From: Nitrospirota bacterium
GTDB lineage: Bacteria > Nitrospirota > UBA9217
NCBI GenBank assembly: GCA_963663225.1
Contig: OY760142.1
Location: forward strand, 1,536,001 to 1,600,000
Length of the DNA stretch: 64,000 bases
Direction of reading: 5' to 3'
Position 1 is the stretch's first letter. Each line of letters opens with the position of its first letter. This document shows positions 11,006 to 16,238 of the stretch, piece by piece. A program made the translations under genes and the position numbers. The notes beneath the pieces are model-generated. The model ran no database searches, had not been told where the DNA came from, and was given only the letters and a program-made list of their open reading frames with translations.

Positions 11006-12361
11006 ATGAACAGCACGAACCTGAAGAAAATACTCATTGCCTGCATTATTTGTTCAGTATCCATCCTGGCACTGCCTGCTTATGCGGAAGATGAACCTCT
11101 TGCGTACTCCCTGTCCTTCACGGACGCAGAACTGGATGACCTGCTTGCGCCTATCGCGCTCTATCCCGATCCCTTGCTGGCGCAGATGCTGCCTGCTTCC
11201 ACGTATCCAACAGAAATAATTGACGCGGATGAATGGCTTCGAAGCGGAGGCACGGTGGCAGGTATTGACGGCCAGAACTGGGACGAATCCGTCAAGGCAA
11301 TTGCCCACTATCCCGACGTCCTGAGGATGATGGCCGACAATATGGACTGGACCGCCAATCTGGGCGATGCTTTTTTGAACCAACCTGAGGATGTGTCAAG
11401 ATCAATCCAGCATCTGAGGCGGCAGGCAAGAGACATGGGCAACCTGTCCAGTAATGATAAACAGAGTGTGGACATTCTTGAAGAAGGCAACATCGAAATC
11501 ATTCCTGCTCAGCCGCAGTATGTGTATGTCCCGGTGTATGATCCTACCGTCGTGTATTTCAGGCGGCCGTCGCTGAGCATTCCGCCATTTATACTCTTCG
11601 GTCCTCCATTTCTCCTCGGCGGATGGCTCATCATGGATTTTAACTGGGGGCACCATGAGGTGATTTATCATGGCTGGAACCGTCCCGGCTGGGTCAATCA
11701 TGCAAGACCGTATGTACACGTGACGAATGTATATGTTAACAGAAGCAGGCCCGCCATTCAGCAGCGATGGAGGCATGATGCATCTCACGGCGACCCTGCA
11801 AAATATCTTATGACGCGGCCCAGTGGTCCGAAAGCAGACAGCTACTCCCGTATCGGCGAAGTCAGGGGAAAAGCCGTTGTTACACAACCCAAACCGGCCG
11901 GAAGGCTGTTCGATTCCAAGTCCGGTGTTCACACATATAGTAATCGCGGCAGGGAGAGCCGCGGCATAGTGCAGCAGCAAACGTCTCCATCGGCAATGCC
12001 CGGCACCAGTCCGCGAAGGACCATTCCGACGCCCCGCGTGAACGAGCGACCGACGGCACCTGCTCCCGCAGTTAGTCAACCGGTCCAGAAACCTGCTCAG
12101 CAGAGACCGGCAGGAATCAGCAGTGATAAAAAAATGACGAGCGGCACCGGACCTGCTCGTGAGGCACCACAAACCATAAAGCGGCCTTCGACCGCTTTCG
12201 GAGGTTACCGCGGTGCAGACGAGGCCAGAGCACAGAGTATGCGCGGCCAGACCAGCCGTCAGAGCAGCGCAGGCGGTGCTTCATCTACCGTCCACCCGCC
12301 AAATCGGGGCGGCAATCCTCCCGCAGGCGGGCATTCATCGGGAGAAAAGCAACGTCGATAA
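11006..12361 (+). CDS. DUF3300-family exported protein with low-complexity C-terminal tail
   Basis: Signal peptide; LAPIALYPDPLLAQ, WDESVKA and YVPVYDP motifs; Pro/Arg/Ser-rich tail. Confidence 0.85.
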   Translation: MNSTNLKKILIACIICSVSILALPAYAEDEPLAYSLSFTDAELDDLLAPIALYPDPLLAQMLPASTYPTEIIDADEWLRSGGTVAGIDGQNWDESVKAIAHYPDVLRMMADNMDWTANLGDAFLNQPEDVSRSIQHLRRQARDMGNLSSNDKQSVDILEEGNIEIIPAQPQYVYVPVYDPTVVYFRRPSLSIPPFILFGPPFLLGGWLIMDFNWGHHEVIYHGWNRPGWVNHARPYVHVTNVYVNRSRPAIQQRWRHDASHGDPAKYLMTRPSGPKADSYSRIGEVRGKAVVTQPKPAGRLFDSKSGVHTYSNRGRESRGIVQQQTSPSAMPGTSPRRTIPTPRVNERPTAPAPAVSQPVQKPAQQRPAGISSDKKMTSGTGPAREAPQTIKRPSTAFGGYRGADEARAQSMRGQTSRQSSAGGASSTVHPPNRGGNPPAGGHSSGEKQRR

Positions 12362-12413
12362 GAAATGTGAACGTTGGTAAAAGGATATTTTTTGCAGAGA
12401 AAGGAAGCATATT

Positions 12414-13382
12414 ATGGCGACAAAGACCGGCAAGAAAACATTCCAGAATACTGCGCACGCGGTTGCTTTATTTATAATATGTGCGGCAATAATCACGATC
12501 GGGAGCATGTCGGTTACAGCGCAACCAACGCAGCAGGTATTCTCGTCTCCGGAGGATGCATTGAAAGAATTGGCAGCGGCAGTTAAAACGAAAGACAAAA
12601 CCGCGCTTGCCCGCATATTCGGGCCGTCCGGAGAAGAACTGCGCGCTACTGACGCGGTGCAGGCTGCCGCTGAATTCGAAGAATTTTCGAAATTATTGAC
12701 GATGAAGGCAAGCTTGGTTAAAGAGAATGAGTCGAAAGTGGTCCTTTATATAGGAAATGAAAACTGGCCGTTTCCAATCCCGCTGATTAAAACGAACAAT
12801 CAGTGGGTTTTTGATACAGAAGCAGGGAAAGAAGAAATTTTGAACCGCAGAATTGGCGAGAACGAGCTGACGGCCATCCTGGTTTGCCGTTCCTATGTAA
12901 AAGCCCAGCGTGAGTACGTACTGAAAGACTGGGATGGTGATGGAATTTTGGCGTACGCACAGAAGCTCCGGAGCGATCCGAACAAAAAGAACGGCCTCTT
13001 CTGGAAACGGGTTCCGGGCGAACCGGTAAGCCCTCTTGGTGAACTCGTGGCGCAGGCCCGGATGGAGGGATACCGGAAGGAAAAGTCGTTATTTAAAGAA
13101 GAGCCGGTGCCTTTTCACGGCTATTACTTTAACATCCTCACGAAACAGGGCAAACGCGCACCGGGAGGGAAATATAGTTACATTGTAAATGGAAATATGG
13201 TCGGGGGATTTGCTCTTGTTGCCTTTCCGGCGGACTGGGGCAAATCGGGAGTAATGACTTTTATTGTGAATCAACAAGGCAAGGTGTACCAGAAAAATCT
13301 CGGAGAAGAAACTCTGAAGATGGCCTCGAAAATGAAGATATACGATCCTGACGAGACATGGGCACTCGTTAAGGGCCAATAA
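12414..13382 (+). CDS. DUF2950-family protein
   Basis: WPFPIPL, RRIGENE, PFHGYYF and GVMTFIVN motifs; usual partner of DUF3300. Confidence 0.85.
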   Translation: MATKTGKKTFQNTAHAVALFIICAAIITIGSMSVTAQPTQQVFSSPEDALKELAAAVKTKDKTALARIFGPSGEELRATDAVQAAAEFEEFSKLLTMKASLVKENESKVVLYIGNENWPFPIPLIKTNNQWVFDTEAGKEEILNRRIGENELTAILVCRSYVKAQREYVLKDWDGDGILAYAQKLRSDPNKKNGLFWKRVPGEPVSPLGELVAQARMEGYRKEKSLFKEEPVPFHGYYFNILTKQGKRAPGGKYSYIVNGNMVGGFALVAFPADWGKSGVMTFIVNQQGKVYQKNLGEETLKMASKMKIYDPDETWALVKGQ

Positions 13383-13625: not shown

Positions 13626-13654
13626 TTGACATTATAATTTCCCTTTGCTACCTT
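13626..13654 (+). promoter_or_regulatory. putative sigma70 promoter of the cytochrome-rhodanese operon
   Basis: TTGACA-17 nt-TACCTT. Confidence 0.5.
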
Positions 13655-13665
13655 ATACCTAAGCA

Positions 13666-13688
13666 GTATGTGCGCTTGACGCACATAC
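13666..13688. repeat. perfect 9-5-9 inverted repeat (operator or 5' UTR hairpin)
   Basis: GTATGTGCG-CTTGA-CGCACATAC. Confidence 0.6.
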
Positions 13689-13826
13689 AAAACTAAACAG
13701 CTCTTATTAATTCAAAATCCAACGTCAATTTAAGAATAAAACTCATACTGCCAATTGATTAAAAAGTTCCGAGCTTCTTTGACAGGTGGCCTTTAAGAAG
13801 CTACAATTTCCCCTAAAGGAGGTATT

Positions 13827-15083
13827 ATGAGGAAAATCGTCATATGCGCCAGCCTGCTGTTCGTAATCCTTCTTGCGTATTCTGCTTCCCCTGCCTACTC
13901 AAAGTCAAGCCAGCCCCAAATTAACGCTTGTGTTGCGTGTCATACCAGCGACCAAACCTTAAAGAAGCTGTTCATACCCCCCAAGGTCCAGGCCTCGGAA
14001 GGAGAAGGGTGAGCAGGGGTGCCACCGTCAGTTCCGGCGGAACTGATGTACAAGGCGTTCCTGGTTGACAAGGATTTGCTTGATCAGGACGCGCATTTTT
14101 CAGAAGGTTGCAGCCCGTGCCACAAAGGCAATGAAAAAGGAAAAGGCAAGGAAGGGGCACACCGCGGCATGGTAAAACGGCCGTCAGATAATCTTGCTGT
14201 CTGCGGAAAATGCCATGAGGATACTTCGCAGCATTACAAAACAGCTCTTCACTATACCTCAGCAGGCCAGATGCATGGAGTCAAGGCGAGATTCAATGAG
14301 AAGGAATTCAAAGCATTTGATCAGAAAGTCTTTGGAAAATCCTGCAGGAGCTGCCATGCATCCTGCGGAGATTGCCATGTAAAATCTCCATCCATAGGAG
14401 GCATCGGAACAGGATTTATCAAGGGGCACCAGTTCGTAAAACGTGATGAAGGAAAAACATGCGGTATCTGCCACGGAGGCAGAGTGTATCCGGAATACAC
14501 CGGCGACTATGGCGGCTCAGCAGACGTCCATTACCAGAAAGGAATGCTCTGTCTGGACTGCCATAAAAAATCGGAACTGCATGGCAATGGTACGGCTTAT
14601 CAAGGAAGAAAGGAAGTCCAGGGACGGCCTGCCTGCGTTCAATGCCATCCCCGGGGCAGTGAAAAAACGGACACCTCGAAGACCGCCCATGTCCAGCATG
14701 GAGACAAGGTGAGTTGCTATGCGTGCCATTCAGGGGGAACCTACAGAAACTGCTACGACTGCCACCTTGGGAAGGGTGCATCATCAAAACCCGGCTTTAT
14801 CCTGGGAATAGATCCACAGAATAAAAAAACCGTTACTACCCTGAGACTGATACCAACCGTACGGGACACATTCAAACCGGCAGGAATTTCTATGGCAGGT
14901 TTTGATGCGCTCCCGAACTACTGGGGCACGTCGCCTCACAATATCAAAAAGCGCACCGAACGCACCCGGTCGTGTGACGTGTGCCATCAGGAGCACAAGG
15001 ATTTTCTGACAAAAGAAGGATTGATACCAAACGGTTCCAAGGCGAATGAAGGCCTAATTTATGACTTTAAACTCAATAAATAA
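13827..15083 (+). CDS. exported multiheme c-type cytochrome (11 CxxCH) with predicted selenocysteine at residue 62 (TGA 14010-14012)
   Basis: ORFs 13827-14012 and 14019-15083 share a frame. The signal peptide and 1 CxxCH lie before the TGA, and 10 CxxCH with no signal peptide lie after it. A SECIS-like hairpin follows the TGA; AAGGAGG SD. Confidence 0.8.
14013..14051 (+). promoter_or_regulatory. bacterial SECIS-like stem-loop
   Basis: CGTCAGTTCC (14026-14035), GGC loop, GGAACTGATG (14039-14048). The G-containing apical loop starts about 24 nt after the UGA; a lower GTGC/GTAC stem is possible. Confidence 0.7.
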
Positions 15084-15096
15084 AAGGAGGATGCTT

Positions 15097-15993
15097 ATGA
15101 TCAGGAAACGTATGCTGCAAATGCTGGTGTTGGTTCTTATTGTGATGCTGGTGCCCGTGGTGGCGGCAGCACGGGATGCCGCCCCGATTGTATCAACAGA
15201 CTGGCTCGAAAAGAACCTGAAAAACAACAATGTGGTGATTATCGATATTCGGAAGGTGGAAGAATACAAGGCAGGCCACATTCCCGGAGCGGTTAATGCG
15301 GTCTATGGAACATGGGCGATTATGAAGGGTGGCCTGAGAAATGAGCTGCCCGCAGCAGATGACTTGTTTGATGCAATTGGTGCCGCAGGTATTGAGCCGA
15401 CATCAAGCGTGGTTGTCGTAGGGAATGTTGAAACAACACCCGATCGCACCGATGTTACGAGAGTTGCTTGGACACTCAAGTACGCAGGCATTGAAAATGT
15501 TGCACTGCTCGATGGTGGTTATAAAAAATGGTTGGCGGATAAAAAGACGATATCTACCGACGTGGTGAAAGCAAAAACAAAAACATACAAAGGAAAAATC
15601 AATGCCAATCTTTTTACGAACAAAGACTATGTGTTAAGCCAACTTGGTAAGGCAACAATTGTCGATGTCAGGGAAAAAGATTTTTACGAGGGCAAGAAAA
15701 AATTCGATTTTGTAGCTAAAGCAGGAAGAGTCCCCGGCGCAAAGAATTTGCCCACCTCACTTCCTTATACAAAAGAGGGGACATTCAAGGACAAAGCAGA
15801 ACTTACTGCGATTGCGGCGAATGTTGTGGGAACCGATGTATCAAAAGAAATAATCACCTATTGTGATACAGGCAAAGTATGTTCAGCCTGGACATTCTTG
15901 CTGTCTGAAGTCCTTGGATACAAGAATGTAAAGGATTACGACGGTTCTATGGAAGAATGGACAAAAGATCCTAAGGCTCCGTTCGAACCGTAA
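15097..15993 (+). CDS. exported tandem-domain rhodanese/sulfurtransferase
   Basis: Signal peptide; GHIPGA, LLDGG, active-site YCDTG, YDGSMEEW. Its AGGAGG SD abuts the cytochrome stop codon. Confidence 0.92.
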   Translation: MIRKRMLQMLVLVLIVMLVPVVAAARDAAPIVSTDWLEKNLKNNNVVIIDIRKVEEYKAGHIPGAVNAVYGTWAIMKGGLRNELPAADDLFDAIGAAGIEPTSSVVVVGNVETTPDRTDVTRVAWTLKYAGIENVALLDGGYKKWLADKKTISTDVVKAKTKTYKGKINANLFTNKDYVLSQLGKATIVDVREKDFYEGKKKFDFVAKAGRVPGAKNLPTSLPYTKEGTFKDKAELTAIAANVVGTDVSKEIITYCDTGKVCSAWTFLLSEVLGYKNVKDYDGSMEEWTKDPKAPFEP

Positions 15994-16004
15994 GCAGTCT
16001 TACG

Positions 16005-16037
16005 AAAACGGGCAGAATTTTTCTGCCCGTTTTTTTA
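16005..16037 (+). terminator. intrinsic terminator
   Basis: AAAACGGGCAGAA-TTT-TTCTGCCCGTTTTTTT after the rhodanese gene. Confidence 0.85.
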
Positions 16038-16238
16038 TTCCACCTGCGCTTAGTCCTCAGCGCCATCCTTCTCCGTGTCTTTTGCCACGATGCTTTCCAG
16101 CCCCAAAATACGCCTTTTATAGCCGAAACAGGTATTGCACAAGAAAAATTAAAGTATTAAATACCCATTTCGGGCGATTTACTTTCACGGAAGACTATGG
16201 TATGTCATCTGTTAACGATATTGAAGAGGGCATACGAG

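Follow-up and report, generated by a model that had tools for sequence, protein, structure and literature searches.

A candidate sulfane-sulfur reductase module composed of a selenocysteine-containing 11-heme cytochrome and an exported rhodanese in a Nitrospirota bacterium

A stretch of 64,000 nucleotides from the genome of a Nitrospirota bacterium (assembly GCA_963663225.1, contig OY760142.1, positions 1,536,001 to 1,600,000 of the forward strand; in the following the window, with positions counted from its first letter) encodes a compact two-gene operon, in which the gene of an exported c-type cytochrome with eleven heme-binding motifs is directly followed by the gene of an exported two-domain rhodanese. 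The cytochrome reading frame contains a TGA codon at 14010–14012, which is very probably decoded as selenocysteine (Sec). The conservation of this TGA, of the hairpin that follows it and of the gene pair is far beyond chance. Regarding the function, which we infer from the sequences and their genomic context, we see roughly even chances that the two proteins form a molybdenum-free periplasmic reductase for sulfane sulfur with the rhodanese acting as the substrate carrier. More tentatively, the cytochrome might belong to a second family of multiheme cytochrome c selenoenzymes with an evolutionary origin of its own, in which Sec is placed on or next to a heme without bis-His ligation and which is either fed by a rhodanese or wired to a cytochrome b.

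Selenocysteine in an 11-heme cytochrome

Two open reading frames (ORFs) on the forward strand, 13827–14012 (61 amino acids) and 14019–15083, lie in one and the same frame with the TGA between them. Reading TGA as Sec yields a single gene (13827–15083, forward strand, stop codon TAA at 15081–15083) for a protein of 418 amino acids, with Sec at position 62 within the motif GEG-U-AG-x-PP-x-V and with 11 CxxCH motifs. This agrees with an earlier reading of the window made from the letters alone (the sequence-only reading), which had proposed a seleno-multiheme cytochrome with an 11-heme chain and Sec62. Judged by eye, the N-terminus of the protein, MRKIVICASLLFVILLAYSASPAYS, resembles a Sec-type (export) signal peptide comprising residues 1–25 (13827–13901) with a probable cleavage after AYS, and the relatives have equivalent hydrophobic N-termini. 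The source genome, which consists of one 3.26-Mb contig, has a tRNA-Sec and encodes SelB (375.9 bits), SelA (597.1 bits) and SelD (372.2 bits), each exceeding the curated NCBIfam cut-off. The selD match (G000:C1:522565-523479, reverse strand, outside the window) itself holds one in-frame TGA, and SelD of this genome is likely a selenoprotein as well.

Relatives of the cytochrome are encoded in 307 of 375 pattern-matched stretches from a collection of genomes covering 185,579 species, and the best 80 of these 307 stretches were used as loci for comparison. At the position of residue 62, 79 of the 80 loci have a TGA and one (L060) has a CGA, and the sequence on both sides is conserved in frame. 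Moreover, 201 genomes were evenly sampled from the order that holds one of the related loci, and 95 of them have a match to the cytochrome at E ≤ 1e-30. According to a count by hand, residue 62 is spanned by 96 of the 105 match rows, with an in-frame TGA in 94 and none in two.

The TGA is followed at a distance of 12 nt by a hairpin resembling a selenocysteine insertion sequence (SECIS) at 14025–14040 of the forward strand. In the consensus structure of 81 aligned sequences, it is formed by a 5-bp stem (columns 16–20 with 27–31) and a 6-nt loop, in which G22 and U23 are invariant (81/81). The stem pairs 17:30 and 20:27 are kept in all 81 sequences and the pair 16:31 in 79; the pairs 18:29 and 19:28 are variable, showing some compensatory changes next to 5 and 13 breaks, respectively. 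Compensatory changes occur in three of the eight predicted pairs of the consensus structure. Furthermore, the third positions of two proline codons (T15 and G18) are at least 90% conserved, and this conservation at synonymous positions points to a constraint at the level of the RNA. The window's own 60 nt fold with −28.2 kcal/mol (z −3.43). The locus with CGA in place of TGA, L060, also has a G-to-C exchange at column 31, i.e., on one side of the stem pair 16:31.

An alternative is that the TGA is a true stop codon or a defect, in which case the frame would represent two genes, a pseudogene or a codon read through without Sec insertion. Most gene callers indeed split the gene at this position. 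The protein database holds 579 homologues. Of the 120 listed, only seven match 97% or more of the query length; the majority of the remaining listed ones have 340–352 amino acids and begin just past the TGA, and short database proteins of 54–72 amino acids stop exactly before it. However, the part past the TGA lacks a separate signal peptide, and c-type hemes are attached outside the cytoplasm. Together with the in-frame conservation on both sides, the hairpin with its invariant loop bases and the complete Sec machinery of the genome, this makes a true stop or defect extremely unlikely. The family is widespread and systematically mis-annotated, its usual annotation being that of a truncated 'cytochrome c3 family protein'. 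Three truncated cytochrome fragments (P0056, P0060 and P0093) bear the name 'thiosulfate/3-mercaptopyruvate sulfurtransferase', which was apparently carried over from the neighboring rhodanese.

The exported rhodanese and its pairing with the cytochrome

The second gene (15097–15993, forward strand) encodes an exported protein of 298 amino acids with two PF00581 stretches (E 5.9e-36), which can be aligned from end to end with two-domain sulfurtransferases of solved structure (3aax/3hwi, E 4.6e-32 to 3aax). Its hydrophobic N-terminus, MIRKRMLQMLVLVLIVMLVPVVAAARD, contains no lipobox Cys as judged by eye. The loop YCDTGKVCS aligns on the catalytic YCRIGERSS, placing C256 (codon 15862–15864) at the position of the catalytic Cys of 3aax/3hwi, within the family motif Y-C-D-[TS]-G-[KR]. 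Y255, C256 and G259 do not vary among 35 partner rhodaneses, and the conservation of D257 reaches at least 90%. The sequence-only reading had described an exported two-domain rhodanese with the active loop CDTGKVC; this holds for the first Cys of the loop, which is catalytic by alignment and invariant, and does not extend to the second, which is not conserved. Compared with the NCBIfam models, the rhodanese scores 95.1 bits against SseA (NF008557), below the cut-off of 250, and 69.3 bits against ExtH (NF040901), its second-best match, below the cut-off of 200.

The match to ExtH bears on the possibility that the pair acts as a reductase or detoxification system for selenite and tellurite, i.e., for chalcogen oxyanions, whereby the rhodanese would bind selenium as perselenide and the Sec cytochrome would provide the electrons. 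NCBIfam labels the ext genes of Geobacter a 'selenite/tellurite reduction operon', the acidic Asp in the rhodanese loop is unusual for a thiosulfate site, and the characterized selenoprotein MccSep of Geobacter, to which we return below, reduces selenite too, less well than polysulfide (PMC13510729). However, the score against ExtH is far under the cut-off, and the rhodanese lacks a lipobox. Moreover, 95 of 201 genomes of one order are more than would be expected for the detoxification of a trace element, and the links of the family to quinol-oxidising cytochromes, described below, suggest respiration of an abundant acceptor. We therefore consider a primary role in selenite or tellurite reduction unlikely.

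On the contigs of 79 of the 80 loci there is room for an adjacent gene. A rhodanese gene lies directly adjacent on the same strand in 67 of these 79, downstream in 64 and upstream in three; at the 64 downstream loci its projected start is 5–92 nt past the end of the cytochrome match. The other loci show a remnant only (one), no rhodanese within the flank (11) or lack the room on the contig (one). Five of the 11 loci without an adjacent rhodanese have another rhodanese-domain gene further along the cluster. In about 56 of 75 full-length close matches the rhodanese is immediately adjacent, as cross-matched by hand. In the 201 sampled genomes, which are related and not independent of each other, a tally by hand gave both genes in 74, the cytochrome only in 21, the rhodanese only in seven and neither in 99. 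A homologue with 34% identity in a further genome (G017) likewise has 11 hemes and a SECIS-like hairpin; its Sec residue lies within AIAG-U-GVSAP, and the gene of an exported rhodanese comes next. Co-conservation of the rhodanese with the cytochrome, a test set beforehand, is thus borne out by the 67 of 79 loci and by this distant homologue.

The identities of cytochrome and rhodanese to the window proteins correlate over the 64 loci (Spearman 0.53); as evidence for co-evolution the correlation was discounted, because related genomes are not independent. At the locus of the distant homologue (L096, G017:C45) two exported rhodaneses are encoded in tandem, the first with the loop YCNSAQQ and the second with the loop YSNQGLQ, in which Ser replaces the catalytic Cys.

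Forms without selenocysteine and heme coordination

In seven full-length database proteins the residue at the Sec position is R, W, Y, S, A, W and A, respectively. At the DNA level, L097 has a genuine TGG (Trp) and L060 a genuine CGA (Arg), both of which differ from TGA by a single base; L060 has no adjacent rhodanese. The N-terminus of P0034, one of the proteins with Trp, is identical to that of L089:4163, whose DNA has TGA, and its Trp is probably a TGA read as Trp by the gene caller, perhaps by applying a TGA=Trp code to a short contig; the same may hold for P0077. With the N-terminal 83 residues as a query, a word-index search gave three truncated matches and a representative-library search gave ten, namely five N-terminal fragments of 54–72 amino acids, the partial, Sec-less P0125, two ORFs whose start lies just past the TGA and two long proteins that matched repeatedly over short stretches. 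None of six distinct Sec-less forms (R, W, Y, S, A) carries a Cys in place of Sec; this sample is small, and the N-terminal searches were weak. The absence of Cys-type relatives makes the family a useful case for the question why some enzymes need selenium.

All Cys residues of the cytochrome are part of CxxCH motifs except for C7 of the signal peptide, and 60 sequences of both the 11-heme group and a 13-heme sister group share no other conserved Cys. Conserved in these 60 sequences are all 11 CxxCH motifs and nine further His residues, and neither Met nor Lys. With nine conserved His outside the motifs for 11 hemes, two hemes would not be bis-His ligated via conserved His, which could leave room for a catalytic heme or for a heme ligated by Sec. 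Sec62 is located 23 residues past heme motif 1.

These observations touch on the alternative that the cytochrome is mainly an electron carrier or wire, with Sec62 as an axial heme ligand or redox switch instead of a substrate site and with the rhodanese in a separate role such as periplasmic persulfide stress. The Sec-less variants with Arg, Trp, Tyr, Ser or Ala, and never Cys, suggest that the protein persists without a chalcogen at this position; the two hemes without a conserved distal His and the several other multiheme cytochromes in the expanded clusters described below would fit with it as well. On the other hand, the costly Sec codon and its SECIS are kept near-universally, arguing for a catalytic need, and the same-strand spacing of 5–92 nt to the rhodanese in 64 loci argues for a shared function. 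A mere electron carrier is thus very unlikely.

Sister group, expanded clusters and electron source

In a sister group with 36–40% identity to the window cytochrome (12 loci: L097–L101, L103–L105, L107–L109 and L111), the protein has 13 hemes, carries a membrane helix at its C-terminus and contains the motif GEG-U-GG. In all 12 loci a PF01292 cytochrome b gene lies immediately 3′ of the cytochrome gene; two of these were scored against Pfam and reached 85.6 and 92.5 bits. Cytochromes b of this type are the usual quinol-interacting partners. Their constant presence beside the 13-heme sisters connects, in some lineages, the Sec site with the quinone pool, and the 13-heme protein together with its cytochrome b looks like a complete quinol-linked Sec/heme oxidoreductase. 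The idea that the 13-heme group substitutes the Cys of the rhodanese by a Cys in cis about 10 residues before Sec was rejected, since such a Cys is present in four of the 12 loci only.

Moreover, about 23 loci of the family have an expanded cluster, which additionally encodes an 8-heme protein (about 665 amino acids), a second rhodanese-like protein (about 250 amino acids) and a 9-heme cytochrome. A 6-heme c3-like protein is also encoded in expanded clusters (L055, L060, L081, L082, L093 and about 18 others). In four of four genomes checked the 9-heme frame continues into a PF01292-like b-type domain, with scores of 24.8–31.7 bits against a cut-off of 30.1, three of them below it; a fusion of the 9-heme protein to a b-type domain is therefore suggestive only. 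We take this architecture to be like that of CbcL, one of the inner-membrane cytochromes of Geobacter. The best match to the 9-heme CbcL-like protein in the window's own genome lies outside the window (G000:C1:2679620-2680490, reverse strand); it extends over different frames, one of the matches being interrupted by a TAA, and may represent a broken gene or separate genes.

The sequence-only reading had stated that no porin or quinol-interacting subunit is encoded here. This is correct within the window, where no porin or quinol-binding gene was found near the operon; the relatives do encode a quinol-interacting partner. Such partners in relatives strengthen a respiratory reading of the system. 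On this comparison, the Sec-bearing cytochrome is the conserved core, and its partners vary by subfamily.

A possible role in the reduction of sulfane sulfur

For a sulfane-sulfur reductase the following sequence of events might be envisaged. First, polysulfide or a similar compound would donate sulfane sulfur to Cys256 of the rhodanese, which would thereby be converted to a persulfide. This persulfide would be presented to the selenolate of Sec62, whose attack would result in a Se-S adduct. Electrons delivered through the heme chain would then cleave the adduct and sulfide would be released. The electrons might be derived from the periplasmic cytochrome pool in the organism of the window, and from a cytochrome b or a CbcL-like quinol oxidase in the relatives. 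The module would in this way act as a terminal sulfane-sulfur reductase, which might also reduce selenite in a side reaction, and use a chemistry similar to that of MccSep in a different protein family.

The same components might also operate in the oxidative direction, so that sulfide, persulfide or thiosulfate would be oxidized at Sec with transfer of the electrons to the cytochrome and the quinone pool, as in TsdA/SoxAX or in disproportionation. The authors of the MccSep study regard its mechanism as perhaps the reverse of the TsdA/SoxAX reactions, and the same paper notes sulfur disproportionators among the Nitrospirota (PMC13510729). The records of the window's closest relatives are titled Nitrospiraceae. 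Cytochrome b and multiheme chains are, moreover, reversible wires. The carriers, however, are by record title mostly Syntrophales, Syntrophorhabdaceae and similar anaerobes. To our knowledge, such anaerobes have no high-potential acceptor for these electrons, and the one characterized multiheme enzyme with Sec is a reductase, so that we regard an oxidative role as quite unlikely.

Several observations weigh against the sulfane-sulfur reductase with a rhodanese carrier. Eleven of the 79 loci keep the TGA and have no adjacent rhodanese, which shows that the partner is common and not obligatory in cis; the 13-heme group has no rhodanese in its loci at all, and both findings together indicate that a rhodanese encoded in cis is dispensable for the function of the Sec site. 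These genomes also contain, at other places, paralogues of this rhodanese type. A natural fusion of cytochrome and rhodanese was found only in P0069, one member on one contig, which is weak as evidence for binding. The rhodanese has an Asp beside its catalytic Cys where 3aax has a basic residue, and its substrate may differ accordingly. An AlphaFold2 model of the cytochrome, calculated with an alignment of 46 sequences, is poor (pLDDT 60.3, pTM 0.48), with the Sec loop 54–69 below 50; Foldseek with this poor model gave no match in the PDB at E ≤ 0.001. Finally, MccSep has a heme-ligating Cys and its family includes Cys-type relatives (PMC13510729); neither was found for the window family, and the chemistry may differ accordingly.

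The sequence-only reading had proposed a periplasmic redox module for sulfur or selenium, modelled on the ext cluster of Geobacter. What stands of this proposal is the conserved exported pair and the precedent itself; the cytochrome falls outside the precedent's family, and the rhodanese is not always adjacent.

If the more far-reaching reading of an independent selenoenzyme family fed by a rhodanese or wired to a cytochrome b is true, an unrecognized molybdenum-free respiratory sink for sulfur or selenium would be present in about one in two genomes sampled from one order (with records titled Syntrophaceae, Smithella and Syntrophales), and models for the disposal of electrons in syntrophic and methanogenic communities would change. 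The architecture of the family differs from that of MccSep by its 11 or 13 hemes and its N-terminal Sec, and the conserved partner is, depending on the subfamily, an exported rhodanese or a cytochrome b. Taken together with the wide distribution, this leads to the directly testable proposal that syntrophs, relatives of Geobacter, some sulfate reducers and Nitrospirota reduce sulfur or selenium independently of molybdenum.

Organization of the locus

The two genes are closely spaced. The cytochrome stop codon TAA (15081–15083) runs directly into the Shine-Dalgarno sequence AAGGAGG of the rhodanese (15084–15090), which lies 6 nt upstream of its ATG at 15097, just as read before; the intergenic gap amounts to 13 bases. 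The cytochrome gene has its own Shine-Dalgarno sequence AAGGAGG at 13816–13822, 4 nt upstream of the ATG at 13827, which is kept in the two closest relatives, L014 and L015. The strong intrinsic terminator that had been noticed downstream of the rhodanese is confirmed as a 14-bp hairpin (16004–16034) followed by a U run (16004–16041 in total, forward strand). It folds with −20.3 kcal/mol (z −6.25), none of 200 shuffled sequences was equally stable, and the hairpin was missed by a simple terminator scan. Three sequencing runs labelled RNA-Seq, which probably represent DNA, gave no contig bridging the cytochrome and rhodanese genes.

Upstream of the operon two promoter-like motifs are present on the forward strand, and both are conserved in L014 and L015. 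A promoter had been proposed for 13626–13654. The distal motif (13627–13655) indeed has a perfect TTGACA; its −10 element is poor, it is absent from the promoter scan, and the best site lies elsewhere, at 13779–13807. L014 and L015 both keep the distal TTGACA plus a downstream GCTAC(C/G)TTAT, and this motif could be a weak promoter or the site of a regulator. The proximal motif (TTGACA-17-TACAAT) matches 11 of 12 consensus positions, which places it at the top of the scan by consensus match only; both of its hexamers are kept in L015, where the spacer has diverged. The scan gave six promoter-like sites, compared with 4.2 ± 2.3 expected, i.e., no excess over chance. Between the two motifs lies a 19-nt palindrome, ATGTGCG-CTTGA-CGCACAT (13669–13687), whose 3′ arm is changed in L014; the surrounding region shows no conservation in L015. 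The palindrome might bind a regulator or have arisen by chance.

The flanking genes encode DUF3300 and DUF2950 proteins, a response regulator-PilZ protein and a DUF6982 protein. The DUF3300/DUF2950 gene pair at 11006–13382 lies directly upstream of the operon and is also present in members of the genus that lack the operon.

Distribution

Within the genus of the window, two of five other genomes contain the pair (96% and 85% identity). Of 19 further genomes of the family, G017 alone has a substantial match, and a sample of 16 genomes from elsewhere in the phylum gave none beyond weak heme-motif hits. Next in similarity (66% identity) are sequences whose records bear the titles Deltaproteobacteria, Syntrophorhabdaceae and Syntrophus. 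By record title, Geobacter sp. OR-1 and Desulfonema magnum are among the carriers as well. This patchy distribution suggests that the two-gene unit was acquired laterally. In the genomes of the genus without the operon the DUF3300/DUF2950 pair is kept and the downstream context is different, so that the comparison defines no clean insertion boundary.

Comparison with known systems

The closest functional precedent is MccSep of Geobacter sulfurreducens, formerly ExtKL (GSU2937-2936), a periplasmic selenoprotein polysulfide reductase (PMC13510729). MccSep forms homotetramers whose subunits bind five hemes each. Sec325 is located in an Ig-like domain at the C-terminus, Cys239 serves as a ligand of heme 2, and Sec and heme reduce polysulfide, which is preferred over selenite (PMC13510729). 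ExtH, a rhodanese-like lipoprotein, is named in the reference list of the same paper, so that the precedent invoked by the sequence-only reading, a rhodanese together with a multiheme selenoprotein in the ext cluster of Geobacter, is real (PMC13510729). In the literature searched MccSep, described in 2026, is the only characterized multiheme selenoprotein; the window cytochrome represents a second family, unrelated to it in sequence.

Both proteins are periplasmic multiheme c-type cytochromes with one Sec encoded by an in-frame UGA with a SECIS-like hairpin, both are genomically associated with a rhodanese, both are usually split by gene callers, and both occur in Desulfobacterota and Nitrospirota (PMC13510729). 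They differ in the number of hemes (five in MccSep, 11 in the window cytochrome), in the position and motif of Sec (Sec325 in D-G-U-P versus Sec62 in G-E-G-U-A-G), in the strictly conserved heme-ligating Cys239 of MccSep, which has no counterpart in the window cytochrome, and in the partner, i.e., the lipoprotein ExtH versus a soluble two-domain rhodanese (PMC13510729). Compared with NCBIfam, where the presence of an ExtKL model is unverified, the window cytochrome gave only weak heme-motif matches to ExtM/N/O (best 37.8 bits, ExtN; cut-offs at least 200), and none of the PDB chains, among which the presence of MccSep is likewise unverified, matched below E 0.01. Four locus tags of the window family are missing from Data S1/S2 of PMC13510729, and the MccSep sequences given there are plainly different. 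Judged by its sequence, the window cytochrome is not a member of the MccSep/ExtKL family. A description of an 11-heme Sec cytochrome was not found in the literature searched, in which the MccSep paper is the sole relevant one.

In Dethiobacter alkaliphilus, octaheme cytochromes similar to SirA/MccA/Otr are clustered with rhodanese genes and were proposed from genomics as determinants of sulfur reduction, and one cytochrome of this type was formerly misnamed a thiosulfate sulfurtransferase (PMC10376724). The clustering of multiheme cytochrome and rhodanese and even the misnaming, as in P0056, P0060 and P0093, are thus shared with the window family; in contrast, the Dethiobacter proteins are octaheme members of known families, and the passages on them do not mention Sec (PMC10376724).

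With the two-domain sulfurtransferases (3aax/3hwi, 1uar, 1e0c and SseA) the window rhodanese shares the fold at the level of sequence and the aligned catalytic Cys; it differs from them by its export, by the loop CD[TS]G[KR] in place of the CRIGERS of 3aax and by its tie in gene order to a cytochrome. The expanded clusters of the relatives resemble CbcL in fusing multiheme c-type and b-type parts, in contrast to the window, which encodes no such protein. Finally, in the Sud-PsrABC system of Wolinella succinogenes a periplasmic carrier of the rhodanese type hands the sulfur of polysulfide to a terminal reductase, which is the division of labor proposed here for rhodanese and cytochrome. Whereas Psr belongs to the molybdopterin enzymes and possesses a membrane anchor of its own, and Sud comprises a single domain, the reductase of the window would be a heme/Sec protein served by a two-domain carrier.

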